Source: Clostridia bacterium
GTDB taxonomy: Bacteria; Bacillota; Clostridia; Oscillospirales; CAG-272
Direction of reading: 5' to 3'
Length of the DNA: 50,306 nucleotides
Assembly (NCBI GenBank): GCA_017454525.1
Contig: JAFTCT010000104.1
Location: forward strand, 1 to 50,306
Shown here piece by piece: positions 10,420 through 48,640 of this stretch (position 1 is its first letter; the number at the start of each line of letters is the position of its first letter). Position numbers and translations under genes: made by a program. The notes below the pieces were generated by a model, which searched no databases, was not told where the DNA came from, and saw only the letters and a list, made by a program, of their open reading frames with translations.

Positions 10420-10452
10420 GTTTTTGCGCTTCCTTCCTTTTTGCTTTTTATC

Positions 10453-10486
10453 ATTATAGCAAAAAAGACCGCGCGCTTTTTGTCAA
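10453..10486 (-). promoter_or_regulatory. Putative spoIIE promoter with a 22-nt spacer
   Basis: TTGACA (10486-10481) and TATAAT (10458-10453) are 22 nt apart; TGTCAAA (1 mismatch to the 0A box TGNCGAA) overlaps the -35. Confidence 0.6.
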
Positions 10487-10496
10487 AAGCGCGCGG
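10461..10496 (-). terminator. Intrinsic terminator of the 10543..13116 gene
   Basis: 12-bp perfect stem CCGCGCGCTTTT/AAAAGCGCGCGG followed by TCTTTTTT on the minus strand. Confidence 0.7.
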
Positions 10497-10542
10497 CAGG
10501 AAACAGAATGCGGTTATTTTGTTTTTGCGGTCACCCGCCGGC

Positions 10543-13116
10543 TCATCCGACGGTGTAGATGATGGTGTTCGCGGTATGGAGCGTCTTGGAAACGCCGTCC
10601 GCGTCGACCGTCACGTGCTGGAAGGCGATAAGGTAATCGCCTGCTTCGGTGATGGCGGGCAGGGTAACGGAATACGCTTTGTTCTCGGGCGTGACCGTCT
10701 GGGTGACGATCGGCTCTTTGGCGCCCAGTTTGGTGACGGTGACTGTGATCTCGGTGATCTTCTTGGTCGTCAGCGTCCCGCTGACCGCGATGCCGTCCGC
10801 GGTCGCTTCCGCCTTGGCGGTGATCGGGTTCACTTCGGTGAATTCGGGAACGATGTTCCACTTCATCGCGTCGGTGAGCTCGCTGCCGACTTCCTTGATG
10901 ACGATCTTGTCCTCGTCATTGACGGCGAGAGCGAAGTATTTGCCTTCGGGACTTCTGAGGTAGAAGGAAACGGTGCCGTCCTCGTTGTAGGAGATGCCCC
11001 AGAACTGAGTGGCGAAGCAGGAGCCGGGATTGTCGATCGAGCCCGCGCTCTCGGCGTTGAACTGCGCGGTGTTGCCGTCGTTGAACTGTCCCTTGGTGAC
11101 GTCGAGCACCTTGGTGTACTTGTCGGTGCTTTCCTTGAGCCAGAGTTTATATCTGTCAAGCGCCGTGGAGTAGGTGATGTAGAATTTGTACGCTTCCTTG
11201 GACTTGTTCGTGTCGCCGGTCTTGAGCAGCATTCCGCGGTCGTTGATCATGAATTTGCCGGTCTTGACGTTCGTGAAGGTGTAGAAGGTCCCGATGATGA
11301 CGTCCTTCGCTGCCGTTTTGCCGAAGTTGAAGGAGTACCAGACCTCGCTCTCGGCGACCGATTCGCCCTTGGGCATCGTGAAGGTGCGGACGACCTCGCC
11401 GTTGCTGTTCTTGATCACGATGCTCTTGACGGTCACGGGGTTCTTCAGGTCTCTCGAGACGACTCTGACCGTGTAGTCGAAGTCTTCGTAGCTCGTTCCC
11501 TCGGGCAGTCCGGTGAGCAGTCTCTCAAACGAAATGGTGTAGTAACCGTCGACCGCTTTGCCGTTTTTGGTGCCGGTCGGGTTGAAGAACTCGTAGTTTG
11601 AGGCCTTATCGACGGTCTTGTCGTTGTTCTTGCTGTTCAGACCGTAGGTCGCAAAACCGTTCCAGTGGACGTGATAGGTCTGATACGCCTCGATCCTCGA
11701 GGTCCTGCCGAAGGCGTCGGTTTTGGTCATTTCGATCGAGAAGGCGCCGCGGTTCGCGGTTTCGAGTTCGACTTCCGCGTAGAGCTGAGGTTTCTGGTCG
11801 GTGATGTCGCGGTCCCAGTAGATGAACGAGAAGACGTCGAATACCACGCCTCTCTTATCCTTTTCGGGATCGTCCAGAACGAAGGCGCTTTCGCCCTCTT
11901 CATTCTTCTGCGGGTTGAAGGTGTTGAGGGAGTCGTACATGACCCACGCGAAGCCGTCTTTTCCCCACTTCTTGTTGCCTGCGTTGCAGACGAGGAAGGC
12001 GCCGGTGGTGGTCACGCCGTGGCTCTCGAAGGAGATCTCGTCGTCGTAGCCGACGATGCAGACCTGATACGCCGTTTTGGTGTAGCTGTCGGAAAGCTCG
12101 AGCGCGAACGCGATGACGGTGTCGCCCGCTTTGCCGTCGCTGCCGGTATCGGCGGGCAGGGTCTCTTCCTGCCAGCCCTGGATGATGCCCTGGGCGACGA
12201 CGACGTTGCCGGTAACGATCGCGTCCTTGATCTTCTTCAGCAGTTTCTGTCCGTTTTCGCTTTCGGTGATCTCGATGCCGCCGGTCTTGGGATCATAATA
12301 ACCGGTGGTGACGACGGTGTTGTCGCGGTTGCTGGTGTTGATGTATTCGTACTGGATCAGTCTGTATTTGAGGGCTTCCTCGCCGATGCCCTTATCGACC
12401 TTCCAGCCGGTGGTCTGCGTCTGGTAGACGTTGTTCTTCTTGACGACGGGGATCTTCAGAGCGCTTCTTGCGTAGTCGTCCTTCGCGATCGTCAGACAGC
12501 CGTTATCCCTTAAGATATCGTAAGTCGCCTGTAAACTGCGCGCGTACTGCCCCGTGTATTTCGCGGAGAAGCAGGAGGAAAAGTCTGTCGCGGGCTTCCA
12601 TACGAGAGAAGGATCCTTGTTGGTCGCATAGCGCGCGACGGCGTTGGTGTACTGCATATAGGTCACGGCGTCGGAGGCGGGATTGATGATGTCCTTGCCG
12701 TTGTCGATGTCGTCCGCGTAGTTGTCGCTCGAGCGTTCGGTCGGAGCGGGGAGGAAGTCGCCGACGAGCGAAGCGTGCGTGGGCAGTTCTTCCGCTTCGG
12801 TGTGTTCCGTCTTGACGTACGGACGTTTGACGCTGCCGAAGAATTCGGGAACGTCGGTGTACGGACCGGGCGCTTCGGTTTCTTTTTCCGTCGGCGTGGT
12901 CGGCGCGACCGTGGGATCGGGCGTGTCGGTCGTGGGCGCGGCGGTCTCTTTGGTCGAAGGATCGTTCGACGGCGTCGGCTGTGCGGCGGTCGTCGTTTCG
13001 GCGCCTTTGCTCGGCGTGGGCGTCGGCGTCGGCGTGCTGTTTCCGCTGCAGGCGGTGAGCAGGATCGCGCTGCCGATCATGATCGCCGTCAGAACGAGTG
13101 CAAGGATTCTTTTCAT
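10543..13116 (-). CDS. Lipoprotein: catalytically dead papain-like domain plus ricin-type beta-trefoil
   Basis: Lipobox LTAC and PT-rich linker. Homologous to its neighbours (VTYMQYTNAVARY, QVCIVGYDD, WVMYD) but has Cys->Pro and His->Tyr. C-terminal YTFTNVKTGK...VLDV...QFW...KWNI. Confidence 0.8.
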   Translation of the reverse strand: MKRILALVLTAIMIGSAILLTACSGNSTPTPTPTPSKGAETTTAAQPTPSNDPSTKETAAPTTDTPDPTVAPTTPTEKETEAPGPYTDVPEFFGSVKRPYVKTEHTEAEELPTHASLVGDFLPAPTERSSDNYADDIDNGKDIINPASDAVTYMQYTNAVARYATNKDPSLVWKPATDFSSCFSAKYTGQYARSLQATYDILRDNGCLTIAKDDYARSALKIPVVKKNNVYQTQTTGWKVDKGIGEEALKYRLIQYEYINTSNRDNTVVTTGYYDPKTGGIEITESENGQKLLKKIKDAIVTGNVVVAQGIIQGWQEETLPADTGSDGKAGDTVIAFALELSDSYTKTAYQVCIVGYDDEISFESHGVTTTGAFLVCNAGNKKWGKDGFAWVMYDSLNTFNPQKNEEGESAFVLDDPEKDKRGVVFDVFSFIYWDRDITDQKPQLYAEVELETANRGAFSIEMTKTDAFGRTSRIEAYQTYHVHWNGFATYGLNSKNNDKTVDKASNYEFFNPTGTKNGKAVDGYYTISFERLLTGLPEGTSYEDFDYTVRVVSRDLKNPVTVKSIVIKNSNGEVVRTFTMPKGESVAESEVWYSFNFGKTAAKDVIIGTFYTFTNVKTGKFMINDRGMLLKTGDTNKSKEAYKFYITYSTALDRYKLWLKESTDKYTKVLDVTKGQFNDGNTAQFNAESAGSIDNPGSCFATQFWGISYNEDGTVSFYLRSPEGKYFALAVNDEDKIVIKEVGSELTDAMKWNIVPEFTEVNPITAKAEATADGIAVSGTLTTKKITEITVTVTKLGAKEPIVTQTVTPENKAYSVTLPAITEAGDYLIAFQHVTVDADGVSKTLHTANTIIYTVG

Positions 13117-13187
13117 TGTGGTACCCCCTGTGTTTATTCTTTTTTCCCATGCGACGGGATGATATTATCCCATTAAGGGCTGATAAC

Positions 13188-13233
13188 AGTATAGAGCAAA
13201 ATTCCGCAAAAGTCAAGACCTTTGCGGAATTTT
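13188..13233 (-). promoter_or_regulatory. SigA-type promoter with a near-perfect 36-bp palindrome centred on the -35
   Basis: TTGACT (13216-13211)-17 nt-TATACT (13193-13188); arms AAAATTCCGCAAA/TTTGCGGAATTTT at 13198-13210 and 13221-13233. Confidence 0.65.
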
Positions 13234-13276
13234 CATGGAAAGGCGTCGATTTTTATCCCTTTTTTCGCGCGCGTTT

Positions 13277-14068
13277 TCAAAGCGGGGTTTCAAGGAAGCG
13301 CTCCATACGGAGCATCACGTCGGGATCCGTCGAACTGCTCTCCAGCACGGTCCGCCCGCGCTTTTCTTTGTCGGGAGAAATGAGGGAGCACTCCTCCAGA
13401 CGGTGTTTCAGCTGCCGCGCCGTGCCTTCCGCGCCGTCGTAGAAATCCACGGTGCCGCCGAAGATCCGGCTGATCACCGGACGGGCGAAAGGGAAGTGCG
13501 TACAGCCCAGCACGATACAGTCGGGCGCCGCCGACGGGGCAACGAGCCAGGGCGCGAGGATCTCGCGCAGGCGCCGCTCGGTCTTTTCTTCCGGCAGACC
13601 CTCCTCGACGAGCCTGACAAGATCGGGGCAGGGCAGCAGATCGAAATCCGCCTCGTCTGAAAGCGACTGCATCAGCGCTCTGAATTTCTCGAGATGCAGC
13701 GTCATTTCGGTCGCCATGATCAGCACGTGCGGACGGGGCGCGGAGAGCGCCGCGGGCTTGATCGCCGGCTCCATGCCGATCACCGGCACGTCGGGAAAGC
13801 GCGCGCGCAGCGTTTCCGCCGCCGCGGCGGTCGCGGTGTTGCAGGCGATGACCAGCGCCTTGGCGCCGCGCGCGAGAAGATGATCGGCGATCGCGTTCGC
13901 ACGCGCCGTCACCTCTTCGCGCGTTTTGCCGCCGTAAGGCGCGTAGGCGTTGTCGCCGTAGTAGAGGAAATCCTCGTGCGGGAGGAGCGCGCGCAGACGG
14001 ATGAGGACGCTGATCCCGCCGCAGCCGGAATCGAATACGCCGACCGGGTTCTCACATCTGCCGTTCAC
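13277..14068 (-). CDS. murI: Glutamate racemase
   Basis: GVFDSGCGG, PYG, IACNTAT, LGCTHFP (both catalytic Cys). GTG start after AAAGGAG. Confidence 0.95.
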   Translation of the reverse strand: MNGRCENPVGVFDSGCGGISVLIRLRALLPHEDFLYYGDNAYAPYGGKTREEVTARANAIADHLLARGAKALVIACNTATAAAAETLRARFPDVPVIGMEPAIKPAALSAPRPHVLIMATEMTLHLEKFRALMQSLSDEADFDLLPCPDLVRLVEEGLPEEKTERRLREILAPWLVAPSAAPDCIVLGCTHFPFARPVISRIFGGTVDFYDGAEGTARQLKHRLEECSLISPDKEKRGRTVLESSSTDPDVMLRMERFLETPL

Positions 14069-14105
14069 CGTGTCACGCTCCTTTCCTTTTTTCCTTTTCT
14101 TTCGG

Positions 14106-16934
14106 TCACATGACGGTGCACACCGTCTGCGTTCCGTAGGGTTTTCCGTCCAGCTCGCTCGTGAAAATGTAGATGCCCGACGCAAGCTTCAGATCAACGA
14201 CGGCGCTCCCGTTTTCGGGCGTGACGGTCACGGTCTTTTCCACGGTGCCGTCGTTTTTGCGCACCGTCAGGGCGATCTCGCCGCCCGTGTATTTGTCGGG
14301 CGTGCGGACGGTGACGTGCGCGCCGTTTTCATCCTGACTGACCGAGGTGCTCAGGCGCACCGGGGTCACCGCTTCGAGGATCCAGCGGTCCTCGTCTGAG
14401 CCGTTGTCCTTGTGCAGGGTAAAATTGTTCTTGTCCGAGCCGAAGACCAGCGTCGGATCGCCGTGCGAGCGGACGGTAAAGGTGCCGTCCCCGTTGACCG
14501 TCAGATCGAACGCCTGGAAAGCGCGCTCGCCGGGTTTGTTGAGCTGCGTCTTCACACCGTCCTTCAGGTCGGTGCCGTTGATATCGAGAACGTACTTGTC
14601 TCTGAAGTCCCAGAAGCGGAAAACGCCTTCCGTCTTGTCGTATTTGATCGTGAAGACGCCCATTTCGTTTTCGTTGACCTTGCCGGAGTCGTACGCAAAG
14701 GTCATTTTGTTCTTGGCGAGCGTCAGAAGTTTGCCGGTGCCGGCGTTGCGCAGGCGGAAGGTGCCGGTGCCCACGTAACTTTCGGTCTCTCCGCCGAGGT
14801 CGAAAACGTATCTGTAGGAGGCGTTGTCGACCAGCTCCTCCGTCATGCCGGTCACGACGCTGCTGAGAACGTTTCCGCTCTCGTCCAGCAGCTTCAGACT
14901 CTTGAGCACCGCGCCGGTGCCGCGCACCGTCACGCCCCACTTGAAGTCCTCGGGGTCGGTGCTGAACTGCGAGAGCAGCGGTTCATAGCTGCAGGCGAAG
15001 AAGCCGGTCTCGGGCACGGTCGGATTGCTCTTGCCCGAGAAGGACAGGCGTTCGCCCTCTTCCAGACTGAGCCCCGGAAGGATCTCCTCCTTGGTGCGCA
15101 TGACGGAGAACGCGGGTTCGTAACTGTCCTGCAGGCCGTTTTTGTCGGTGCGCGTCAGCGTAATGGAGAGGGGCTGGCGGTCGGTCATCGAGACCTCCGC
15201 TTCAACGATCAGTTTCGGAAGTCCCACGGCGATATCCTTATCCCAGTAGGTCCAGCTGAAGCGGTAGATCGTGCCGGTGCGCTCATAACTGCCGCCGTAT
15301 TTGATCGCCGTGGCGATCATGCCGGAGAAGGAGCCGTCCTCGTTTTTGTCGTAGGTCCCGTCAACGTAGAAGAGCGCTCTGTCGGTTTCCGCGGGAAGGG
15401 GACCGACGGAAAACTGGGTGCCGTCGGCGGAGGCGTCGAGATTGAGGAACAGATCCTCCGCGCCCTCCTTCATGATCAGCACCTTGCCGGCGCGCGTATC
15501 CGCGGGCTTGGGATCCCCGTCGGTGGGCACCGGTTCGGGCAGGACCTTCTCTGCGGGGATGAGCGCGACTCTGAATAGCGGATCGGGCTCGTCTGTCAGC
15601 ACTCTTTTGCCGTCGGCAAAGGAGAAGTATTTCGTGCCGCTCTGCAGGTAGTAAAGGGGATAGGTCTCTTCCTTATAGGTCGTTTCGCCCGCGGGGATGA
15701 AGCGGACGGAGATGTCGTTCTTCAGGGCGCTGAGCGGATTGATCAGCCTGCCGTCCCCGAGCGAGAGCGCGTAGGAGCCGGAATAGAACTGCGGAACGTT
15801 GAACAGTCCGTGTTCGGACACCTTGTTGAAGGCGTCGTACATCATAAAGACGTTGCCGTCGTTGCACCATCTGCCCCAGGAATTGCGGATGAGGAAGGCG
15901 CCCTTCATCGTCACGCCGTCGACCGTCACGGTGATGTCGTCGTCGTAGCCGATGACCGTCACGCAGTGGTTCCCGCTGTCGTCGCCGTCATAGGGTTCCT
16001 CCCTTATGACCTTGAAGCCGTTCCAGATCACGCTGTCGCCCGCTTTGGCGAGCGTTCCGGCGCCCTTTTTGGTAATGGTGGTATATCTCCAGTAGGAGGA
16101 CCAGCCGCTGAGCACGACGGCGTTTCCGCGCACGAGCGCGTCCTTGGTCTTGTCGATCAGTCCCCTGCCGTAGTCGTTAGTCGTCAGCTGTCCCTGATTG
16201 GTCGCGATGAACTCGTTCTCCTCGTAGCCGGTGAGACGGAAGTTCAGCGCGTCGATCATATTGCCTTCCTTGACGTCCCAGCTGCGGGATTTCGGATCGC
16301 GCACGTCGGAGGGACCCCAGTAGTCGCCCGAGGCGACGTTCTTTTTGGTCACGCAGACGCTCATCGGCAGACAGCCGTTGTCCATGAGGACGCGGTAGGC
16401 GTAGGAGGTGCCGGCGCCCGCGAAATTATAGGTGTATTTGGGCGAGAACTGGCATTTCGGGTCCTTGGAAGGATCCCAGTTGCTCTCGGGATAGTAATGA
16501 TTCATGTACTGCGAAACGGCGACGGTGAACTGCATATAGGTCACCGCTTCCGAAGAGCAGCTGCCGATCGAGCCCTGATCGTCGGGCTTGGGGACGTGCT
16601 TGGTCCCGAGAAGCGAGAACGAGGCGGGAAAACCGACGTCCGGCGTTTCGGTCGGCGTGGGCGTCGGTTCGGGCGTGGGGGTCGGCGTCGGCGTTTCGGT
16701 CGGCGTCGGCGTCTCTGTCGGCGTCGGCGTGCCTGTCGGGACCGGCGTTTCGGTCGGGGCAGACGTTTCGGTCGGCGTCGGCGTTTCTGTCGGCGCGGCG
16801 GTCGGGGTCGTTTCGGCGGACGCCGTTTCTGTCGGCGTCGGCGCGTCGGTCGGAACGTTCACGGTGCCGGCGCAGGATGCGAGCAGCGGCAGCGTGAGGA
16901 TCAGAGCGACGAAAAGGGCGATGATCTTTTTCAA
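14106..16934 (-). CDS. Lipoprotein: PT stalk, papain-like (C1A-type) peptidase with inserted domain, ricin-type beta-trefoil
   Basis: TTG start with GGAGG RBS; lipobox LASC; DQGSIGSCSS, GNHCVTVIGYDD, IRNSWG; C-terminal FRLRNAGTGK...YVLDING...DRWIL. Confidence 0.85.
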   Translation of the reverse strand: MKKIIALFVALILTLPLLASCAGTVNVPTDAPTPTETASAETTPTAAPTETPTPTETSAPTETPVPTGTPTPTETPTPTETPTPTPTPEPTPTPTETPDVGFPASFSLLGTKHVPKPDDQGSIGSCSSEAVTYMQFTVAVSQYMNHYYPESNWDPSKDPKCQFSPKYTYNFAGAGTSYAYRVLMDNGCLPMSVCVTKKNVASGDYWGPSDVRDPKSRSWDVKEGNMIDALNFRLTGYEENEFIATNQGQLTTNDYGRGLIDKTKDALVRGNAVVLSGWSSYWRYTTITKKGAGTLAKAGDSVIWNGFKVIREEPYDGDDSGNHCVTVIGYDDDITVTVDGVTMKGAFLIRNSWGRWCNDGNVFMMYDAFNKVSEHGLFNVPQFYSGSYALSLGDGRLINPLSALKNDISVRFIPAGETTYKEETYPLYYLQSGTKYFSFADGKRVLTDEPDPLFRVALIPAEKVLPEPVPTDGDPKPADTRAGKVLIMKEGAEDLFLNLDASADGTQFSVGPLPAETDRALFYVDGTYDKNEDGSFSGMIATAIKYGGSYERTGTIYRFSWTYWDKDIAVGLPKLIVEAEVSMTDRQPLSITLTRTDKNGLQDSYEPAFSVMRTKEEILPGLSLEEGERLSFSGKSNPTVPETGFFACSYEPLLSQFSTDPEDFKWGVTVRGTGAVLKSLKLLDESGNVLSSVVTGMTEELVDNASYRYVFDLGGETESYVGTGTFRLRNAGTGKLLTLAKNKMTFAYDSGKVNENEMGVFTIKYDKTEGVFRFWDFRDKYVLDINGTDLKDGVKTQLNKPGERAFQAFDLTVNGDGTFTVRSHGDPTLVFGSDKNNFTLHKDNGSDEDRWILEAVTPVRLSTSVSQDENGAHVTVRTPDKYTGGEIALTVRKNDGTVEKTVTVTPENGSAVVDLKLASGIYIFTSELDGKPYGTQTVCTVM
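16640..16850 (-). repeat. Pro/Thr-rich (PTETPT) low-complexity linker repeat
   Basis: Repeated CCGACCGAAACG/CCGACG units. Analogous linkers at about 12870-13035 and 19505-19690. Confidence 0.8.
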
Positions 16935-16978
16935 AATAATGTCCTCCGGAAACAGGTATTTCGTGCGTGTGCGGCGTT

Positions 16979-19774
16979 TCAGTATCCGATCGTTCTGGCG
17001 ACCTGGAGACCTATGGCGTATCCTTCGCGCGTGACCGTGAAGAGATAGGTCCCTTTTTCGAGGTCCAGGACGAATTCGGTCGGTTCCTCTTTCAGTTCTC
17101 CCGAGAGAGTCCTGACGATCCTGCCGTCCGACGCGATCTTCAGTTCGAAGACGCCGCTCTTGTATTTCGGCGTCGAGGCGACGGTGACGACGGTTTTGCC
17201 GTTTTCTTCGCGTACCGAAACGGGACGTTCCACGCCGCTCGCGTCGCGGGCGTACCAGCGCAGTCCGTCGCTCCCGTCATCCTTGAAGACGCCGAACTTC
17301 TCGTCCTTGTACCCCAGTACGTATTCGGGCGCGTTCTTCAGCGCGAAGCGGATCTTTCCGTCTTCGCCGCGCGAGAAGGTCCAGCCCTGATAGTTTCTTG
17401 TCTTGCCCAGCAGGTTGAAGCGGACGCCGTTTCCGTCCGTGGGCGCGCCCGAGCCGGCGATATCCAGAACGTATTTCTGCGAGTAATTCATGATCGTGTA
17501 GGCGCCCCGGGTCTGATTATAGGTCACGGTGAAGTCGCGCGCGAACACGTCGTCGATCTTTCTGCCGTTGTCCCAGGCAAAGGTCATGTTGTTGGTCGCG
17601 AGCGACAGCGTTTTGCCGGTCTGGGCGTTTGTGAGGTTGTACGTTCCGTCGCCGAAGAGAGAACGCTCGCCCTTGCCGCTGCCCAGAGCGAAATAGAGCG
17701 TTCTGCCGCTCTTCAGACCGCCTTCGTTCTCGTCCGGCTTGACGCTTGCGATGATATTTTTGTTCTTGTCGACCAGCCGCAGTTCCAGCAGACGCGCGGT
17801 ACTGCCGCGCAGGGTGATCCCCCAGGAGAAATCGTCGATCGTATGATCGTCGTTGAACTGAAGCAGCTTATCGTAGCTGAAGGCGAACCAGCCGCTCTCG
17901 CTCTCCGTGGGGTCGGTCTTGCCCGAGAAGGAGAGCTTCTGTCCCTCCGTGCCGAGATCGGGGCGGGCGCCCTCGTTATAGCGCACGTCCATCATCGCGG
18001 GGATCGCGGTGGTGGTGAAGCCCTCTTTGTCGGTGCGCAGAAGGGTGATGTACAGGTTGTCGCGGCTGAGGATCTCGACGTTCACCTCGACCATCAGTTC
18101 GGGCAGACCGACCGAGATGTCCTTATCCCAGTAGACGAAACCGAGCGTGCCGCAGGCGTCGCAGCGGTTGTAATGCGTGACCTTCTCCTCGTTTGAGCAG
18201 AGCATCGCCCTGAAGGAGCCGTCCTCCAGAGCGGTCCTGCCGCCGAGGATAAAGGTGCAGTTCCTTACCGAGTCGGGGGTCGCGACGAGCGAGGGGGAAG
18301 AGCCGCTTGTCAGGTCCGAGCAGAGATATTTTCCTTCTCCCGACGCGTTCGCGGCGTAGAGCAGCCAGCCCTCGGATTTATCCTCCGGGAAGATATCCGC
18401 CTTGGGAATGAGGGCGAACACGCTGTGTTCTCCGGGGGTGGACGCCTTTCTTGCCATCGTTCTGCCGAAGTCGTTGTACACGAACCAGACGCCGTCGACC
18501 GGCTCGCAGATCGTATAGAGCGGATAGGTCTTTCCGTCGATCTCGGTCTCTCCCGCGGGATCGAAACGGAGGAAGGGGTTGACGTTCGTGTTGGGCATCC
18601 CGTATTCGGAGATGAGCGACGCGAAGGCGTTGCGCGCGGGCAGAAGCGCCATGCGCGTACTGTTGTATTCCTTGACGTTGAGTTCGGGGTAAACGGAGGT
18701 GTTGTTCATGGCGTCGTACATCATCCAGACGTTTCCGCTGTTCTTCCAGTCTCCCCAGGAATTGCGCACGAGGAAGGCGCCGCGCATCGTGACGCCGTTG
18801 ACCGTGACCTCGGCGTTGTCGTCGTAGCCGATGATGGCGACGCAGTGTCCGCCGGGATCGTCGGTGCCCGAGGCTCTCGCGCGGCTGCACCACAGTACGT
18901 ACTCGCCCTTCTTTGCAATGTCGCCGCTCTTCGTGATCTGCGCGTTCGACTCCCAGTAGCTGCTGGAGCCGGTGATGGCGACGGCGTTGCCGCGTGCGAC
19001 GGCGTCCTTGACGCGCAGAAGCAGTTTGTTGTTTCCGGAGGCGGTGAACAGCTGTCCGCCGGTATGGACTTCCTCAAAGTTCTTTAAGCGGTACATCATC
19101 GCGTCGATGAGCTGCCCTTCTCCGAGATCCCACGAACGGGTCTTCTCGGAAAAGAGGTTGGACGCGCCGTAGAAGCGCGTGGGATCGTAGGGCTCGAACT
19201 TGTCGTACACGCACTCGCTCATCGGCAGGGCGCCGTGATCCATGAGTACGCGGTAGCACATTTCGGTGTTGCCCATCGTGTAGTTATAGGTGAATTTCGC
19301 CGAAAAGGTCTTGGAGACGTCGCCCGAAGAGGGATCCCAGTCGATGCCGGGGAAATTGTGATTCATATACTGCGAGACGGCGACGGTGAACTGCGTGAAG
19401 GTCACGCCTTCGGAGGTGCAGGAGCCGATGCCGCCCTGATTGTCGACCAGCGGAAGATGCTTTGTGCCGACCAGCGTATAGGAGGAGGGCAGATCGTCAT
19501 AATCCGGTTCGGGAGTGGGGGTCGGTTCGGGCGTCGGCGTGGGCGTCGGCGTGGGAGTCGGCGTGGACGTCGGCACGGGGGTCGTTGCGGGCGTCGGCGT
19601 TTCTGCCGTCGGCGTGTCGACAGCCGTCGGATCTTCCGTCGGCGCGGGCGCCGTCGTGTCGGTCGCCGACGGAACAGTCGGCGTTCCGGCGGGAATATCC
19701 TCGTTCGCCGCGCACGCGGCGAGAACGGGAAGGATCAGAATGAAACATACGATGAGGGAAATGATCCTTTTCAA
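16979..19774 (-). CDS. Lipoprotein: PT stalk, papain-like (C1A-type) peptidase with inserted domain, ricin-type beta-trefoil
   Basis: TTG start with AAGGAGG RBS; lipobox LAAC; NQGGIGSCTS, GGHCVAIIGYDD, VRNSWG; C-terminal YNLTNAQTGK...YVLDIAG...QGW...LRWY. Confidence 0.85.
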   Translation of the reverse strand: MKRIISLIVCFILILPVLAACAANEDIPAGTPTVPSATDTTAPAPTEDPTAVDTPTAETPTPATTPVPTSTPTPTPTPTPTPEPTPTPEPDYDDLPSSYTLVGTKHLPLVDNQGGIGSCTSEGVTFTQFTVAVSQYMNHNFPGIDWDPSSGDVSKTFSAKFTYNYTMGNTEMCYRVLMDHGALPMSECVYDKFEPYDPTRFYGASNLFSEKTRSWDLGEGQLIDAMMYRLKNFEEVHTGGQLFTASGNNKLLLRVKDAVARGNAVAITGSSSYWESNAQITKSGDIAKKGEYVLWCSRARASGTDDPGGHCVAIIGYDDNAEVTVNGVTMRGAFLVRNSWGDWKNSGNVWMMYDAMNNTSVYPELNVKEYNSTRMALLPARNAFASLISEYGMPNTNVNPFLRFDPAGETEIDGKTYPLYTICEPVDGVWFVYNDFGRTMARKASTPGEHSVFALIPKADIFPEDKSEGWLLYAANASGEGKYLCSDLTSGSSPSLVATPDSVRNCTFILGGRTALEDGSFRAMLCSNEEKVTHYNRCDACGTLGFVYWDKDISVGLPELMVEVNVEILSRDNLYITLLRTDKEGFTTTAIPAMMDVRYNEGARPDLGTEGQKLSFSGKTDPTESESGWFAFSYDKLLQFNDDHTIDDFSWGITLRGSTARLLELRLVDKNKNIIASVKPDENEGGLKSGRTLYFALGSGKGERSLFGDGTYNLTNAQTGKTLSLATNNMTFAWDNGRKIDDVFARDFTVTYNQTRGAYTIMNYSQKYVLDIAGSGAPTDGNGVRFNLLGKTRNYQGWTFSRGEDGKIRFALKNAPEYVLGYKDEKFGVFKDDGSDGLRWYARDASGVERPVSVREENGKTVVTVASTPKYKSGVFELKIASDGRIVRTLSGELKEEPTEFVLDLEKGTYLFTVTREGYAIGLQVARTIGY

Positions 19775-19835
19775 AGCGATTGCCTCCTTTATGTATACGG
19801 CACGTCATACGTTCTGACGTGATCGCTGTTTTTGA

Positions 19836-21677
19836 TTATTCGAAACGGGCTTTTCTGAAAGGCGACGTGATCGCAGAGAGAACGTTCATGCCGCCGTCGC
19901 ACAGAGACGCTTCCGTGACGGTCGCTCTGCCGCTTCTGCCCTTGCGCAGTTCCAGACCCCAGATATAGTCGTCGAAAGCGCCGTTCCTGCCGCCGTAGAG
20001 CGGTTCGAGCGAGAAGGCGAGTTCTCCTTCGCAGGCGCCTCCGTCAAGGATCCCGTCGAAGTTCATATAGTCGCCCTTTTTGCGTTCGCCGAAGAAAGGA
20101 CGGCTGTTATTGTAACGGAACATCGCCGGCAGAAATTTGCGAACATGTCCGCTTTTTTTGCTTCTGCGCGTGACGTAGATCCTGAAGCAGTCGCGGTCGG
20201 TCGCGCTGACCGTGCATCTGACGTAGCGCTCGGGCATACCGATCGCCACGTCTTTGTGCCGGTCGATGAAGCAGAACTGATCGAGCGTCCAGATCCTTTC
20301 GGATCGCGCGTCCTTTCCGGCGGCGATCGTCAGACGGCCGTCAAAACCCGAGGGAGAATAGCTGTCGAGCAGCCAGGATTTTGCCTCGGGATAGCGCGCG
20401 CCGTTGTGCGTGGCGAGACTGCAGTCCCTGCCGGAGGCGGTAAAACTCACGCCCGCGTCCAGCACGCAGAACCCTCCGGGCGCCCCTTCCTTGTCGACCG
20501 CGTAGATCCAGTAACTGCCGCGGTATTCCTCTTTTTCATATTGTTTGTCCACGCCGGGGAAGGCGACGATCTCTTCGTACGGTACCGGCACGAAGCGGCG
20601 CGCGCCGTCCTCTGTCAGCGTGACCGCCCGGTCCTTGGCTTCGGGCGCGTAGGTGAGATATTTGCCGGTCGACGGATCGCAGATCCTGAACGCCGGATAC
20701 TCCTTTCCTTCAACGGTAAAGGAGCCGTCGCGGATGAAGCGCAGCGTCTGATTTTCCTTTGTCAGGGAGGGCGGGAACATCTTCGGCTTGTCCGCGGGCG
20801 TGAGGTGCATCGGTCCCGAGTAGAGTGCCGGATCGTTGAGGGCGCCGTATTCCGAAACGGTGTTGACCGCGTCGTACATCATCCAGACAAGACCGCCGTT
20901 CATCCAGCCGTCGCCGTAGGAATTGGCGATAAGGAAGGCGCCCTGCAGACGCACGCCGGCAAACTGCGCGGTGATCCCGTCGTCGTAGCCGACGATCGTC
21001 ACCTGATGTCCGCCCCCTCCGTTTCCCGCGGCGGCAACGCAGACGCGCTCGCCCTTTTTTCCGAGGTTTCCGCATCCGGTGACGTCGGTATAGACCCATC
21101 TGCCCAGGTAGCCGCCGGTCACGACCGCTTCGCCCGCGACGATCGCCTCCTTGATCCGCGCGAGCAGCGCCCGTCCCTCGGGGGAGGTCGTGAGTTTTTC
21201 GTTATAGGGCGGCTTCGTGAACCAGCGCTGATCGAATCCCTTCAGGCGGTAACGCAGCGCTTTCTCCATCTGTCCTTTTTTCACGAGAAAGGAGGTCGAG
21301 GCGGGGCAGCGCTTTCCGTCCCTGTCGCGCGGGATCGAGCCGCCGAGTACGCCCGGGCGTCCGGTATCGGCTTTTTCGAAGATCCCCTCGGTCTGCGGCA
21401 GCGCGCCGTGGAACGTCAGGAACTCGTAGACCCAGGCGGTGCCCGGTCCGACGATGTTGTAGGAATACTTCGGCGTGAAGGCGTCCCCGAAATTGTCGCG
21501 GGGGCAGAAATCCGACGCGGGATCCTTCTCGTGGATCAGCCGTGAAACGGCGTTTGAAAACTGATTGCGCATGATCGCCTGCGACGCGCAGGAGCCGATC
21601 GCGCCCTGATTGTCAACGGGCGGGAAGTGGGTGTCGCCCCAGATCGACGCGTAGGATGGCAGGGTCTGTTCTTTCAT
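19836..21677 (-). CDS. Papain-like (C1A-type) peptidase without a signal peptide
   Basis: Start MKEQTLP after GGAGG; NQGAIGSCAS, GGHQVTIVGYDD, ANSYG. No hydrophobic N-terminus and no C-terminal ricin domain. Confidence 0.85.
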   Translation of the reverse strand: MKEQTLPSYASIWGDTHFPPVDNQGAIGSCASQAIMRNQFSNAVSRLIHEKDPASDFCPRDNFGDAFTPKYSYNIVGPGTAWVYEFLTFHGALPQTEGIFEKADTGRPGVLGGSIPRDRDGKRCPASTSFLVKKGQMEKALRYRLKGFDQRWFTKPPYNEKLTTSPEGRALLARIKEAIVAGEAVVTGGYLGRWVYTDVTGCGNLGKKGERVCVAAAGNGGGGHQVTIVGYDDGITAQFAGVRLQGAFLIANSYGDGWMNGGLVWMMYDAVNTVSEYGALNDPALYSGPMHLTPADKPKMFPPSLTKENQTLRFIRDGSFTVEGKEYPAFRICDPSTGKYLTYAPEAKDRAVTLTEDGARRFVPVPYEEIVAFPGVDKQYEKEEYRGSYWIYAVDKEGAPGGFCVLDAGVSFTASGRDCSLATHNGARYPEAKSWLLDSYSPSGFDGRLTIAAGKDARSERIWTLDQFCFIDRHKDVAIGMPERYVRCTVSATDRDCFRIYVTRRSKKSGHVRKFLPAMFRYNNSRPFFGERKKGDYMNFDGILDGGACEGELAFSLEPLYGGRNGAFDDYIWGLELRKGRSGRATVTEASLCDGGMNVLSAITSPFRKARFE

Positions 21678-21712
21678 TTCTACGTCCTCCGAACTCATAA
21701 ACTACCACTTTA

Positions 21713-21741
21713 ATTATACTATACACCATATGAAAAGTCAA
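21713..21741 (-). promoter_or_regulatory. SigA-type promoter of the putative peptidase-peptidase-peptidase-murI operon
   Basis: TTGACT-17 nt-TATAAT on the minus strand; downstream intergenic gaps are only 61, 44 and 37 nt. Confidence 0.7.
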
Positions 21742-21813: not shown

Positions 21814-22590
21814 TCATCCCAGCGCCACGTCGAGCGACATCATGGCGATAAAGCCGGCGATAAAGAGCAGCGCGCCGTTCTTCTTTCCGGCGCTTCTGCC
21901 GATCTCCGGCAGAAGCTCGCATGCGGCGACGCAGATCATCGCGCCCGCGGCGAAGGAGAGCGTATAGGGCAGGATCGCGCCGACGAACGACGTGAGCAGC
22001 AGCGTCAGCGCGGCGCCGGCTGGCTCGACCGCGCCCGACAGCACGCCGTATACGAACGATCTGCCTTTTCCCACGCCGCACGCCGCGGCGGGCAGGGATA
22101 CGATCGCGCCCTCCGGGATATTCTGCAGCGCGATCCCCAGAGAGAGAGCGAAGGCGCCGGAGGCGGCGACGGCGTTTCCGTTCAGCACGCCCGCCCACAG
22201 GACGCCGACCGCCATGCCTTCCGGCAGATTGTGCACCGTTACCGCCCAGATCAGCAGCGCCGTTCTCTTTTTTCCGGAGGGAAGCGCGTCGATGCGCTTC
22301 GACAGTCCCGGGAGCAGTCTGTCGAGCAGGAGGCAGAAGAGCGCGCCCGCGGTCACGCCGAGCGCCGGCGGCAGGAACTGCGGAAGAAACGACGTTTCCG
22401 CGCGCTCGATCGCCGGAAGCAGAAGCGACCAGACGGAAGCCGCGAGCATCACGCCGGCGGCGAACGCCGAGAGGGCGCCTTCCGCGTCGCCCGCCCTGTC
22501 CTTTTTTTTGAAAAACACCGCGGCGGCGCCCGCCGCCGTTCCGAAGAACGGAATGAGGATCCCGCACACCGCTTGCAGTTCTGTAGTCAA
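21814..22590 (-). CDS. ZIP family (ZupT/GufA-like) metal transporter
   Basis: AAGVMLAASVWSLL, HNLPEGMAVG, QNIPEG, FAAGAM..V...ELLPE; multiple TM segments. Confidence 0.92.
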   Translation of the reverse strand: MTTELQAVCGILIPFFGTAAGAAAVFFKKKDRAGDAEGALSAFAAGVMLAASVWSLLLPAIERAETSFLPQFLPPALGVTAGALFCLLLDRLLPGLSKRIDALPSGKKRTALLIWAVTVHNLPEGMAVGVLWAGVLNGNAVAASGAFALSLGIALQNIPEGAIVSLPAAACGVGKGRSFVYGVLSGAVEPAGAALTLLLTSFVGAILPYTLSFAAGAMICVAACELLPEIGRSAGKKNGALLFIAGFIAMMSLDVALG

Positions 22591-22762
22591 TTCGGTTATT
22601 TCCTTTCATTTTTATGACCGTGTGCGACGCACACTGCTAACAGTGTATGAAAAGAAGGCGCGCGCGGTCAGCGCCCGCGGCGCAAAGATCGCTCGCACGG
22701 TAAATTTCCCGCGCCGTGATATCCCGCGCCGGGAATCATATCCGCGGGCTTCAGACGGCGTC

Positions 22763-22826
22763 TTTTGCCCGGAGCAAATGATTTTGCCCGGAGCAAAAGA
22801 TTTTGCCCGGAGAAAAAGATTTTGCC
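22763..22826 (+). repeat. 3.4 tandem copies of a 19-bp quasi-palindromic unit abutting the GH89 -35 box
   Basis: TTTTGCCCGGAGCAAATGA / TTTTGCCCGGAGCAAAAGA / TTTTGCCCGGAGAAAAAGA / TTTTGCC. Confidence 0.85.
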
Positions 22827-22855
22827 TTGACAATCCGTTCGTTTTCGGCTACAAT
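22827..22855 (+). promoter_or_regulatory. SigA-type promoter for the secreted GH89
   Basis: TTGACA-17 nt-TACAAT. Confidence 0.7.
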
Positions 22856-22918
22856 GATGCTGCGGGGTCCGGTCGAAGACGCCCGCGGGCGGGCGTGTCG
22901 CCCGGGAAAGGAAATGAC

Positions 22919-25900
22919 ATGAACGGAAAAGTGAAACTCCTGTCGCTTCTCGTTTCGTTTTTGATGATCTTTGAAGCGGCGTCGATCGTTCTGCCGTCTG
23001 CGGCGGCGGTCGTATCCAACGTGGCGCAGGGAAAGAGCGTCAGCGGTCCCGGCAGTGGTCTTGCCAATGCCGTTGACGGCGATATCGGCTCCTTCTGGGA
23101 CGGCGGCGTCTGCCCCTGCGCGCTCACCGTCGACCTCGGAGAGGTGTACGACCTTCAGAGGATCACGCTGGTGACCTATTACGACGGTTCGCGCGCCTAT
23201 ACCTTTCAGATCTCGGTCTCGCTTGACGGCGAGAATTACGAGCTTTACGGCGCAAAGACCGACGGCGCCGTCAGCACTGCCGACGGCACGACTTATGTGA
23301 AGGACGTTTCCGCCCGTTACGTGAAGGCGGAGATCCTTTCGAATACCGCGAATCCCTCCGGTCATATCAACGAGATCTTCGTGTACGGCGCAAGGCAGGG
23401 CGCCGACGATACCGATCCGGGCGACCCCTCGAACGTCGCCTACGGCAAGCCGACGCGTTCGAGCAGTACGACGGGCGACAGCAGCGCCGTGACCGACGGA
23501 AACGACGCGACCTACTGGACGGGCAGGGATTTTCCCGCCTACGTCGACGTCGATCTGATGGACAACTACGCGCTGGAGCGCGTGAAGATCGTCATGCCCT
23601 CGGGCGCGTGGAGTTACGATCTCTACGGATCGATTGACGGGGTGTCCTTTGACAAGCTCGCTTCGCACGGCTATACGCAGGTGAAGTCCGGCGGCGACGT
23701 TTATGAGGTCGGCGGGGTCTACCGTATCCTGCGCGTCAACGTGACGACCTCCTCCTCGGGCCTGGGCGGAAACAGCCGCGTTTCGGAGGTCCGCGCATAC
23801 GGCGCGCTCTCCCCGACGCAGGTCGTCCCCACGCGCGAAAAAATGACCTTTACCGACTATCGCGCCTGGCTATCCGACCGGTACGGCGTGACGGTCGGCG
23901 AAAACTACGATATCTCCGAGACCTTCACCGACAAGGACACCTATGAGGCGCTTTACGGCATCGTTGAGCGGCTGCTCGGCGGCGAATACAGAGACTGGTT
24001 CGTCTTTGAGAAATGCCTCGACGATCTCGCGTTCGATCACTACGCTGTAACGACCGAAAATGGAAAAACGAAAATCGAGGGCAACAACGGCTCCTCCATG
24101 GCGGTCGGTCTCAACGCCTTCCTCAAGAAATACTGCGGCGTGCACATCTCCCAGCAGACGGCGAACGTGACCATGCCCGAAACGATGCCGGTCGTCGCCG
24201 GTTCGCTGACCGGCTCCTCGCCCTATGACGTGCGCTACGCCTACAACTACTGCACGCTCTCCTATACTATGCCGTTTTACGGCTTCGACGAATGGCAGAG
24301 GGAACTGGACTATCTCGCGCTTTCGGGCGTGAATCTGATCCTCGATACCACCGCGACCGAAGCGCTGTGGGTCTCTTATCTTCAGAAATTCGGCTATAAC
24401 GCCGACGACGCGAAGAATTTCGTTTCGGGCTACGCATACAAAGCGTGGTGGCTGATGGGCAATCTGGAGGGCTACGGCGGCAGCGTTTCCGATCAGTGGA
24501 TCCTCGACACGCTTGAACTGGCGCGCGTCAATCAGCGTTTCATGACGGTTCTGGGGATCGAGCCCTGCCTTCAGGGCTTCATGGGCACGCTGCCCACGAC
24601 CTTTGAGAAGATCGCCGGACCGGTCTTGTCCGAAAAGGGCTACGACGATATTTCGGAGTACATGGTCGCGCAGGGCGGCTGGTCGGGCTTCACCCGTCCC
24701 CCGCTGCTCAAGACCACGTACGACGGCTACGAAGAACTGGCGAACACCTTCTACGATACGCAGAAGGCGCTTTACGGCGATATCACGCACTACTACGCAG
24801 GAGATCTCGCGCATGAGGGCGGCGTGATCCCCGCGGATCTGTCGCGCAGCGAGATGTCGGGCGAGATCCTGCGCCACATGACCGAAAACGACGACAGGGC
24901 GGTCTGGGTCATCCAGTGCTGGTGGGGCAACCCCGAAAAGGCGGTGCTCGACGGCTTCGGCGCCGAAAACAGAGCAAGTCACCTGCTGGTGCTCGATCTG
25001 AACGCCACGATCTCCGCCAACTACGGCAACACCTCCACCTGGGGCGGCAGGGAATGGAACGGCTCGGGGTGGGTCTTCTGTATGCTCGACAACTTCGGCG
25101 GGCGCCCGGGCGTACACGGCGAACTGGAATTCATGAAGGACGAGATCCTCAGGGCGTACAATGATTCCGAACACTTGAAGGGGATCGGTCTTGTTTCCGA
25201 GGGCACGCAGATGAACCCGGTGGTGCAGGAGCTGCTCTGGGATATGGCGTGGCGCACCGAGGATTTCGATATGACCGAATGGCTGCACGCCTACGCCGCG
25301 CGCAGATACGGCGCGGAAAACGAAAATCTCAACGCCGCGTGGGACATCCTCCTCGAAACGGCTTACGGCTACGCCGGACCGCACGATTTCAATACCAATA
25401 CCATTCTCAATATGCTGCCCTCGTTCAGCCCCTCCTCGATCTCTGGCAGCACGACGGTCGATTACGACGCCGACGCCTTTGAGGAAGCGGTCGACCTGTT
25501 CATGGGCGAATTTGAGACCTTCAAGAATAAGGAAACGTATATTTACGACGCTGTGGACCTGCTCAAGCAGCTGCTGTCCAACAGCATGACGCTCTATTTC
25601 AACACCTTCGTCGCGGCGCGCGCCGAGGGTGAGCCCGAAGCCGCCGCGGATATGGCGGAGAAATTCATGGACGCTGTGCTGATCATGGACGAGGTCTGCG
25701 AATATGAGATCGACAGCACGATCGGCGAATGGGTCGGACGCATCGACCGCTTTATTTCCGATGACCGCACGGGCGCCTACGACGACTATTCGGTCGATAC
25801 GATGCGCTTCAACGCCAAGGCGATCATCACCGCCTGGTGCAGCAAGATCCTGCACGCCTACGCGTACCGGCAGTATTCCGGACAGATCAGGGATTACAAC

Positions 25901-45255: not shown

Positions 45256-45321
45256 ATCATATCATATTTTGAGAAGTTTTTCAAGAAGGTACTTGTTCTT
45301 TTATGCAAATTATGGTACAAT
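45256..45321. promoter_or_regulatory. Divergent promoters for recG (-) and the second GH89 (+)
   Basis: Minus: TTGAAA-17-TATGAT. Plus: TTGTTC-17-TACAAT with extended TG. Confidence 0.5.
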
Positions 45322-45367
45322 AACGCATAAAGTGACGCCGGCGGAGCCGGCGGTTCGGAGGATTATC

Positions 45368-48300: not shown

Positions 48301-48640
48301 GGACTACTTCTACAGAATGTGGAAGAAACTCCTGCGGCGCGTGAACGAGGCGCTCGAGTCAAAAAAGCCCGCGCCGGAGAAACTGGGCGCCGAGTGCTTC
48401 AGGATCGGCTGGGATTTCGTTCTGTCCGAGAAGGAGTATCGCCGCCGCGCGGCGTCGCCCGAGGGGGAAGGGCAGGACAGAGGCTTGCAGCGCATCTGGA
48501 AGGACGTGCAGAAGCACATGGGCAACCGGGACGCGATTGGCAAGGCGATCGCCCGTCTCGACAGACAGATAGAAAAAGCGAAGATCAAAGCGGCGGAAGC
48601 CGAGGTTTCCGAGAGCATCGCCGCGACGATCGAACACTGA
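45368..48640 (+). CDS. GH89 alpha-N-acetylglucosaminidase with 2 N-terminal CBM32-like modules; no signal peptide or dockerin
   Basis: Start MAELRNVA after GGAGG; RYAYNYCTLSYTMP, WWLMGNLEGYGG, HEGG, GITPEG; collinear with the 22919 enzyme. Confidence 0.9.
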   Translation: MAELRNVARNKRINALGSNVSAITDGISDRNVHWDGGPAPASATVDLGAIYIVSSAKLVTYYGDERAYQFEVYAGCKSGRMAKVYEQKEDVEATADGYSFSFEPVAARYVKVVMTHNTANPSVHIAELEVYGEFLRDAAEDETVKEYTDRENIAYMKPTRANINDAFSSLVTDGDPESCWLGELYPRFVDVDLEENYFLDRVALVAPAFAEFEYAVYHSLDGVNFEKSGRVKTKPTRRTVTLEMNGVKARVIRVMTVGTSQGACGASALCQVKAYGKKAGGKIVRTRKTIEFTTYDAWLARREGVDLTALKDKKGNYKITDTYTAADTVKALEGLITRVLGKKYIKWFVFDIDRAAKENYYELSEKDGKIVIRADCGVSAATGLNHYLKYFCRVQVTQQTKQVKMPERAPHVAEKIFCRANYPVRYAYNYCTLSYTMPYFGYEKWQRELDWLMLSGVNLILDLTGTEALWVSYLQKLGYTADEAKDYVCGYTYKAWWLMGNLEGYGGPVADAWVRDMLEMARVNQRYMTVMGAQPALQTFVGAMPETFAEKANAHLKSRGYPDVGPFMAPQGLWAGGFIRPNVLKTTYKGYSYLAKLFYDTQDEIYGQVSDYYCGDVCHEGGIVPADLSKPEMSAKILFELLRADKNAVWMLQGWWSNPMKEVLDGFGDRKEDHIIILDLAALANPKWTDRKTWDGVEFGGTPWIYCSLSNYGGRTGMHGKLRKMAELMTAARKEARYMKGIGITPEGTNDNPVAYDLFWEMAWRSEAPDIGLWLYEYIARRYGSCTKKDFEAWKIFEKTVYGADTYDGTTKNNVVNENACLRMGYCEGGYFKIRYDRDLFEKGVYAFMENYGAHKDRQGYIYDTVDLLRMTLTVACDDYFEVLKRSRAVRDRKTFAEYSAKYLKAMKLITELCTYNEDELLGNWIGRGIDITTDDRTGEYAGFDRDMMTLDAKILLTSWASSPITNYAARQFDGVMEDYFYRMWKKLLRRVNEALESKKPAPEKLGAECFRIGWDFVLSEKEYRRRAASPEGEGQDRGLQRIWKDVQKHMGNRDAIGKAIARLDRQIEKAKIKAAEAEVSESIAATIEH

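Follow-up and report, generated by a model that had tools for sequence, protein, structure and literature searches.

What does an expanded run of papain-like genes, wrapped around a glutamate racemase gene, do for the bacterium that carries it? The question is raised by a 50,306-nucleotide stretch of DNA from a Clostridia bacterium (GenBank assembly GCA_017454525.1, contig JAFTCT010000104.1, positions 1 to 50,306; hereafter the window), which has a G+C content of about 60% and belongs to a 2.35 Mb metagenome-assembled genome, 93% complete in 140 contigs. An earlier note, made from the letters alone, had reported five open reading frames (ORFs) of one family here and proposed a lineage-specific surface proteolysis system. 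The analysis described below favors, with a probability of about 0.6, a reading in which the genes encode surface-tethered and secreted nutrient proteases, probably directed at glycoproteins, that form a lineage-specific expansion in uncultured herbivore-gut Clostridia. Paralogy, fold, catalytic residues, architecture, and the conservation of gene order and of paralog types are observed; from them we infer anchoring, co-transcription, substrates, and the roles of two unusual members, A and D. The five co-family ORFs and their shared motifs were recovered as first reported. They are lettered A to E, two further copies on other contigs of the same genome being F and G:

188-2671, minus strand: paralog E; signal peptide, active core with Gln-Cys-His-Asn (QCHN), family beta-sandwich, two BspA-type LRR_5 blocks, dockerin-like tail
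10543-13116, minus strand: paralog A; lipoprotein (LTAC) with an 84-residue stalk, dead papain-like domain (11881-12795), beta-sandwich, trefoil-like region, Ig-like end
13277-14068, minus strand: murI, glutamate racemase (Asp_Glu_race match, 1.1e-18), between B and A
14106-16934, minus strand: paralog B; lipoprotein (LASC) with a 77-residue Pro/Thr stalk (16641-16871), active core (15780-16640), nested beta-trefoil (15291-15779), last papain strand and sandwich (14802-15290), second, ricin-like trefoil (14379-14801), Ig-like end
16979-19774, minus strand: paralog C; lipoprotein (LAAC) with a 70-residue Pro/Thr stalk, architecture as in B
19836-21677, minus strand: paralog D; 613 residues, no signal peptide, active core, nested beta-trefoil (20304-20813), last papain strand and sandwich (19839-20303)

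The order of transcription on the minus strand is D, C, B, murI, A, with intergenic gaps of 61 nt (D-C), 44 nt (C-B), 37 nt (B-murI), and 160 nt (murI-A). Translation of E starts at ATG 2671 and that of murI at GTG 14068, which is preceded by AGGAG. The count of five copies proved too low for the genome: a search of it with a profile of the five cores returned seven (E values 1e-97 to 4e-140), including F, a 768-residue lipoprotein with a stalk and a C-terminal trefoil, and G, an 829-residue secreted protein with a dockerin above the Pfam cut-off. Full-length identity to B is 43% for C, 35% for D, 31% for A, and 29% for E; over the 284-position core it is 51%, 42%, 33%, and 40% for C, D, A, and E, respectively. 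An assembly chimera of repeats was ruled out as the source of the array, because independent metagenome contigs from other gut studies bridge each of the junctions A-murI, murI-B, B-C, and C-D at 97-99% identity.

By fold and catalytic order, the family is a divergent, propeptide-less branch of the papain (C1) peptidases. An AlphaFold model of D, based on an alignment of 30 orthologs, reached a mean predicted local distance difference test score (pLDDT) of 86.8 and a predicted template modeling score (pTM) of 0.83. Foldseek returned 187 matches to this model at E≤0.001, with C1 peptidases leading. In VIA, the best match was Lpg2622 from Legionella pneumophila (PDB 6a0n/6a0q; Z 17.2 over 229 residues, 3.2 Å), and the other 49 of the best 50 matches, at Z 15.6-16.7, included xylellain from Xylella fastidiosa (PDB 3ois; Z 16.7), a dead papain-fold seed protein, mite allergens, and cathepsins, among others; alignments over the 50 cover 194-229 residues. 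The same proteins head a profile search of solved structures, with Lpg2622 at 8.9e-8, xylellain at 3.7e-6, the Clostridioides difficile protein Cwp84 at 0.005, and many cathepsins matched through the His-Asn region. At the catalytic columns, B to G all have Q-C-H-N, and A has G-P-Y-N. Instead of Trp, the catalytic Cys is followed by S in B, T in C, and A in D and E; across the copies that have the Cys, this residue is S, T, A, or V. Aligned columns and fold together thus bear out the papain order with a replaced Trp that had been read from the sequence. Among Pfam profiles, Peptidase_C1 (PF00112, cut-off 20.7 bits) is passed only by E, at 27.9 bits and over the His region only, and the C1B profile PF03051 matched no paralog at E≤0.01. 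NCBIfam gave low-complexity stalk matches only; one relative is labeled 'C1 family peptidase' by its source annotation.

The papain fold, with its helical L domain and beta-barrel R domain, and the Gln-Cys-His-Asn order are common to the family, Lpg2622, and xylellain, and in Lpg2622 the residue past the catalytic Cys is likewise not Trp. Lpg2622 has an N-terminal prodomain. Both solved relatives are, at 18-23% identity, distant; they are short, single-domain proteins (267-329 residues in the solved chains) and, unlike the family described here, have no nested trefoil, family sandwich, lipoprotein stalk, or paralog array. To judge from these identities, the family appears to fit no characterised subfamily.

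The domain architecture sets the family further apart. In B, C, and D, a stretch of 160-170 residues past the core is a beta-trefoil, which the first reading of the architecture had overlooked. The insert of D (model residues 1-153) aligns with many trefoils at Z 10-12 (rmsd, root-mean-square deviation, 2.2-3.7 Å over 99-125 residues), its best score being Z 12.0; more than 100 chains reach Z≥8, nearly all of them trefoils. The papain alignments of the D model span residues 11 to about 485 and the trefoil occupies residues 296-465; because the papain alignment runs on both sides of it, the trefoil is inserted within the papain fold. The last papain strand, a strongly conserved motif (R.W.LDQF.F.YWD.D), follows the trefoil. 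Its segment is disordered (pLDDT <50) when modeled without the protease domain and ordered in the full model, consistent with nesting. Pfam searches of segments spanning insert and sandwich from 21 members gave single chance-level matches only. Between species, the nested trefoil is 46-52% identical in D and 20-31% in B-type copies, the core of the latter being 53-60% identical.

After the last papain strand follows a beta-sandwich of about 155-175 residues, conserved in all seven copies. It has no Pfam match, a PDB profile search gave one chance match and not Cwp84, and Foldseek returned nothing at E≤0.001, its weak matches being alpha-toxin C-terminal domains at E 0.01-0.07. Atlas feature scores of 0.75-0.76 lie below the level of a lead, and the best structural match there (TM 0.60) is a Bacillota cluster that itself carries Peptidase_C1. 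A search for the sandwich among longer proteins gave nine matches, all from this peptidase family; no other family was found to carry the domain. In A, B, C, and F, a C-terminal trefoil-like region and an Ig-like end of about 88 residues complete the protein. Any relationship between the nested and the C-terminal trefoil of B-type copies is remote at best (hhalign probability 21%).

Systematic differences in targeting, on which the earlier note had laid weight, separate the paralogs. The bacterial lipobox motif is [LVI][ASTVI][GAS]C, and inspection of the sequences places lipoboxes at residues 20-23 of A (LTAC), B (LASC), C (LAAC), and F (LASC), each past a hydrophobic stretch. In A, B, and C, stalks of 70-84 residues, 44-68% Pro plus Thr, follow directly. 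A stalk combined with a ricin module had been assigned to two lipoproteins; this stands for B and C, with ricin matches below the cut-off, and leaves out A, which also has the stalk and a C-terminal trefoil-like region. A hydrophobic leader is absent from D. E had been described as secreted with leucine-rich repeats and a dockerin: the signal peptide and LRR_5 (61.9 bits) hold, and the Dockerin_1 tail scores only 13.3 bits, under the cut-off of 22.9, which the dockerin of G (PF00404) passes at 26.6 bits. The predicted isoelectric point is 8.4 for D versus 4.7-5.1 for the six exported copies. On these features, A, B, C, and F would be surface-tethered and E and G secreted or scaffold-bound; B and C would be lipid-anchored on the outer face of the membrane, with Pro/Thr stalks of 70-77 residues reaching beyond the wall. 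Their heads are predicted to consist, in order, of the papain fold with a trefoil before its last strand, the beta-sandwich, the second trefoil, and the Ig-like end.

The stalks are encoded by repeats with periods of 6 to 54 nt (13011-13035, 16641-16853, 19515-19600). It is at these repeats that independent assemblies are interrupted or join one of the three lipoprotein genes to another. A 6-nt deletion at 16678 distinguishes strains, and the stalk therefore varies in length.

An N-terminal inhibitory propeptide is typical of C1A peptidases, though not universal. The catalytic Cys is residue 30 of D and lies about 25 residues past the stalk or signal peptide in A (aligned position), B, C, and E; because it is so near the D start, the end of the stalk, or the signal peptide, there is no room for a propeptide. 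The absence noted earlier for the signal-less and dockerin copies therefore extends to all copies.

A profile search of 1.84 billion representative sequences returned 5826 proteins at E≤0.001, of which 1140 reach E≤1e-10 and 97 reach E≤1e-30. Full-core representatives above 190 bits number about 59, and below them scores drop to about 150. In the window's genus, all 6 of 6 genomes have this tight family, each with 6-7 matches; one further genus of the same taxonomic family has 4 matches. It was found in none of 23 other relatives and, at E≤1e-40, in none of a sample of 400 further genomes of the order, which supports the lineage specificity proposed for the system. The next tier, at 120-160 bits, consists of secreted multidomain Peptidase_C1 proteins of Clostridia; among 15 examined, PF00112 was matched in 13, above its cut-off in 11, and a dockerin in 8, and LRR_5, Big_2, CBM_25, or Kelch domains also occur in these wider kin. 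Their secreted dockerin and leucine-rich-repeat style matches E and G; only the tight subfamily was seen to have the nested trefoil or the types that are dead, signal-less, or borne on a lipoprotein stalk.

In a maximum-likelihood tree of 33 cores, the A copies form a clade, as do the D copies (support 100/100), the dockerin copies E and G, and the lipoproteins B, C, and F. The differences in targeting are therefore supported as conserved across species and not accidents of a single genome. Gene order is conserved as well: D is directly followed by a paralog of 900-980 residues in 9 of 11 assessable loci of species-representative genomes, with a lipobox in eight of the nine and an unclear N-terminus in the ninth (L017). 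Of the 12 D loci, six belong to genomes that were counted above; for the new loci, the pairing holds in 4 of 5. Clustering is thus conserved in related genomes, where the earlier note would have dropped its proposal had there been none.

None of the papers returned by the literature searches describes the subfamily. The missing propeptide, a lectin fold nested in the catalytic fold, a lipid anchor on a Pro/Thr stalk, a conserved pseudoprotease clade, and a conserved cytoplasmic member are likewise not described in these papers for bacterial C1 peptidases. A 2023 survey of papains gives most prokaryotes one C1A peptidase and occasionally up to three, and leaves the multidomain bacterial forms unanalysed (PMC10380794). 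Against those one to three copies, this 2.35 Mb genome has seven, and they are conserved throughout a deep genus. Should host or dietary glycoproteins be the substrates, the enzymes would mark a protein-foraging strategy of uncultured hindgut Clostridia, and active, dead, and cytoplasmic members would offer a natural series for the control of the papain fold without prodomains.

Two members depart from the pattern of an active exported enzyme. The first is A, in which Gln, Cys, and His are replaced. Q-C-H-N/D is complete in 29 of the 33 paralogs of eight genomes (26 QCHN and 3 QCHD), the exceptions being A and its three orthologs. The dead copies of the window genome, G002, G003, and G006 form one clade (support 100/99) beside active sisters. 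Among the clusters nearest to A in a search of a global collection (21 aligned of 24 returned), 11, including A, have lost Q, C, and H; in 10 of them, Tyr stands in the place of His. Eight of these 11 show a lipobox, and the remaining three are cut off at the N-terminus. The dead domain is 40-49% identical between species and is the best conserved part of the A-type proteins; over the same species pairs, active cores reach 53-60% and murI 51-54%. Decay of A as a pseudogene was ruled out, since ORFs of 771-857 codons (770-856 residues) are kept in four species and 10 further dead clusters exist. A is best read from these sequences as a retained pseudoenzyme, not debris: catalysis would have been lost and the protein kept under selection, probably to bind substrate or surface as a non-cutting partner or receptor. 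A seed protein of Pachyrhizus erosus (PDB 2b1m; Z 16.6) offers a parallel in that it, too, has a papain fold without the catalytic Cys; it is, however, a single-domain plant protein, whereas the dead domain of A is part of a bacterial lipoprotein and falls in a clade beside active sisters.

A different change was seen in a lipoprotein copy downstream of murI in three species (L003:5258-7957, L004:4473-7223, L008:3939-6665). Its catalytic Asn is replaced by Asp and the Trp that follows is absent (RDSYAN), with Gln, Cys, and His intact, which makes it a distinct sub-type.

The second exception is D. A start-codon artefact was ruled out as the reason for its missing signal: ATG 21677 has GGAGG 8 nt upstream, the alternative ATG 21698 is without a ribosome-binding site, and ortholog N-termini agree. 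About 36 near-full-length homologs of 576-643 residues were found, 29 of which were aligned with D. The Cys lies at residue 27-61, without a hydrophobic leader, in 29 of the 30 aligned sequences, and the 30th is truncated. In a close species pair, D is 92% identical with a ratio of nonsynonymous to synonymous substitution rates (dN/dS) of 0.11, compared with 0.18-0.29 for the others; no other gene of the cluster is as constrained. It would stay in the cytoplasm and probably acts on intracellular peptides. Bleomycin hydrolase and PepC (C1B) are cytoplasmic aminopeptidases of the papain family and, as D, have neither signal peptide nor propeptide. D nevertheless groups with the exported paralogs, carries their trefoil and sandwich, and has no C1B match.

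Signals for transcription were sought by pattern, and the following sites and neighboring genes are relevant to the organization of the locus:

21713-21741, minus strand: sigma-70-like promoter match (TTGACT-17-TATAAT, 11/12; pattern only), between the stop of the ZIP gene and D
13188-13216, minus strand: sigma-70-like promoter match (10/12; pattern only), in the murI-A gap
10468-10497, minus strand: terminator-like hairpin, 13-bp stem and T run (consensus pattern only), 46 nt past the A stop
21814-22590, minus strand: ZIP-family metal transporter gene, upstream of D, between D and a GH89 gene
about 22600-27898 and 45269-48640, plus strand: GH89 (glycoside hydrolase family 89) genes, others lying on genome contigs C93, C121, and C39

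The best promoter-like matches sit directly upstream of D and of A, and promoter- and terminator-like sites fall in exactly the gaps where they would be expected. D, C, B, and murI would thus probably form one transcription unit read from the sigma-70-like promoter at 21741-21713, with A transcribed downstream from its own promoter-like site and ended by a strong terminator. Rfam gave no match in the window at gathering thresholds and a single chance match in the two upstream gaps.

These observations bear on the multi-component system of the earlier note, taken here as an obligate machine of A, B, C, and D that would assemble or work in a fixed relay in which each needs the others. Each type does form its own conserved clade across species, the pairing of D with a lipoprotein gene holds in the 9 of 11 loci described above, and constraint has preserved the dead clade. 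Neither copy number nor gene order is fixed, however: an active gene occupies the A position in three species, D lies 15 kb away in G002, and G014 has four copies only. With the separate promoter-like site of A added, such a machine seems improbable.

The position of murI invites another explanation, in which the lipoprotein peptidases mature the envelope by processing proteins on the surface, or components of the wall, of the cell itself, much as Cwp84 does with the S-layer precursor, and in which murI marks a cell-wall function. The gene is the sole glutamate racemase found in the genome (one match), and it is embedded in the cluster, within the putative operon, in 6/6 genus relatives. Cwp84 (PDB 4d59) supplies a precedent: its structural description presents a surface-attached Clostridial C1 peptidase whose catalytic domain is followed by a contacting, groove-deepening beta-sandwich, a layout that resembles the family (PMC4089489). 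The likeness in sequence is limited to the His region, at the E value of 0.005 given above, and Cwp84 is absent from the best 50 VIA matches. It also has a cleavable propeptide and cell-wall-binding repeats, both missing here, where Pfam found no CWB2 repeats in any paralog. Other genera keep the pair of D and lipoprotein genes without murI in the cluster, and the genes on either side change from genome to genome. The other genomes sampled from the order build walls as well, yet no member of the tight family was found in them, and seven copies with trefoils and a dockerin resemble substrate foraging more than a single maturation step. Envelope maturation is accordingly considered unlikely, although it is the least improbable of the alternatives to foraging. 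The arrangement around murI pointed out by the earlier note holds in the window's genus and not in other genera, and murI was rejected as a general partner of the family because it is embedded in that genus only. The link is read as genus-level synteny of a housekeeping gene riding in an operon, not as functional evidence.

In the close pair G001/G004 (L003:7997-8788 versus L004:7248-8051), murI is 70% identical at the amino acid level with a synonymous divergence (dS) of 1.68, whereas the surrounding peptidases are 77-92% identical with dS 0.47-0.84. Because murI is more diverged than its surroundings, this hints at a different history or at recombination.

The glycan-directed part of the favored reading, nutrient proteolysis at the cell surface, leans on the genome's carbohydrate-active enzymes. 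Five large GH89 genes (NAGLU, alpha-N-acetylglucosaminidase), with F5/8-type-C modules, are present, and neither GH20 nor GH29 was found in the genome. GH89 occurs in 7/7 relatives with the peptidase family versus 1/23 without it. Characterised GH89 enzymes remove alpha-1,4-linked N-acetylglucosamine (GlcNAc) caps from gastric-type mucin (PMC13096917). A GH89 set without GH20 and GH29 that tracks the peptidase family suggests specialisation on alpha-GlcNAc-capped glycans, and since the two families co-occur, glycoprotein substrates are, by this indirect support, probable. A role for GH89 as a divergently oriented neighbor of D was ruled out, as the ZIP gene intervenes and the flanks are not conserved. 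Also present in the genome are an ORF with two cohesins and 18 others with dockerin matches (19 such matches in total), a small cellulosome-like scaffold system to which G, and perhaps E, could dock. The two cohesin modules, together with a dockerin, lie in a 403-residue frame at G000:C106:1163-2182 on the plus strand.

In the favored reading, the active exported copies would act as papain-type endopeptidases that harvest extracellular protein, probably glycoprotein, for nutrition, with the trefoils as targeting modules near the cleft. Record titles and run labels indicate the gut of herbivores as the habitat.

Several points weigh against this reading. A to D give no Peptidase_C1 match at E≤0.01, leaving four of the five window copies below the cut-off. 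RicinB_lectin_2 (PF14200) scores 21.9 bits in B and 24.6 bits in C, both under its cut-off of 25.6, and a modeled trefoil fold does not prove sugar binding. A papain-like enzyme with a trefoil that is predicted to stay in the cytoplasm does not fit a purely extracellular system. The presence of murI in the operon could indicate a role at the cell wall. The co-occurrence with GH89 amounts to one or two independent events, because the kin compared are not independent, and GH89 adjacency is not conserved, the flanks varying by genome. Finally, promoter-like sites number 4 in total, versus 2.4 (standard deviation 1.4) in shuffled sequence, and are thus not in excess.

The trefoils could also be taken as guides for weaponry, that is, for lectin-directed surface proteases aimed at the envelopes of competitor microbes or protozoa. 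Many toxins and lectins with a beta-trefoil are among the fold matches, and the surface trefoil of B-type copies diverges fast relative to its core (20-31% versus 53-60%, as above), as an arms race predicts. Yet the dN/dS of the surface copies, 0.20-0.29, is purifying overall and not diversifying, neither the cluster nor its flanks hold immunity-like or secretion-system genes, and the wider kin are dockerin-borne enzymes typical of polymer degradation. Among the readings considered, this one is the hardest to credit.

A bolder form of the foraging reading assigns the nested trefoil a regulatory role. In papain, the residue that floors the S2 pocket lies on the last strand, and the trefoil sits in the loop before that strand. 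The D trefoil aligns with fungal trefoil proteins that inhibit cysteine proteases (cocaprin Z 11.7, macrocypin 10.4, clitocypin 10.0) at scores similar to those for lectins. The trefoil might then be a built-in gate that replaces the propeptide and holds the enzyme closed or unproductive until a glycan is bound. B and C would be glycan-gated and D latent in the cytoplasm, and, together with the receptor-like A and GH89, the system would harvest alpha-GlcNAc-capped mucin-type glycoproteins in the herbivore hindgut. This extended scheme is offered as a long shot, slightly less probable than the obligate machine.

The surroundings of the array include genes for SpoIIE, a sigma factor, valyl-tRNA synthetase, and RecG. 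A ZIP gene also lies upstream of D in G003 (L007:161-949). In the window, a 1968-residue GH89 ORF listed from GTG 21992 must start past 22590, because it overlaps the ZIP gene, which is encoded on the opposite strand. Long ORFs on the plus strand across from the peptidase genes (10441-11601, 14412-15578, 15810-17048, 16967-18196, and 20145-21545) were not counted as genes, being shadow frames typical of DNA with 60% G+C, with nonsense-like translations rich in Arg, Gly, and Val. At 37036-39876 on the plus strand lies a 946-residue BspA-type leucine-rich-repeat protein (LRR_5, 80.9 bits) without a peptidase domain, whose repeats are of the same type as those in the tail of paralog E.

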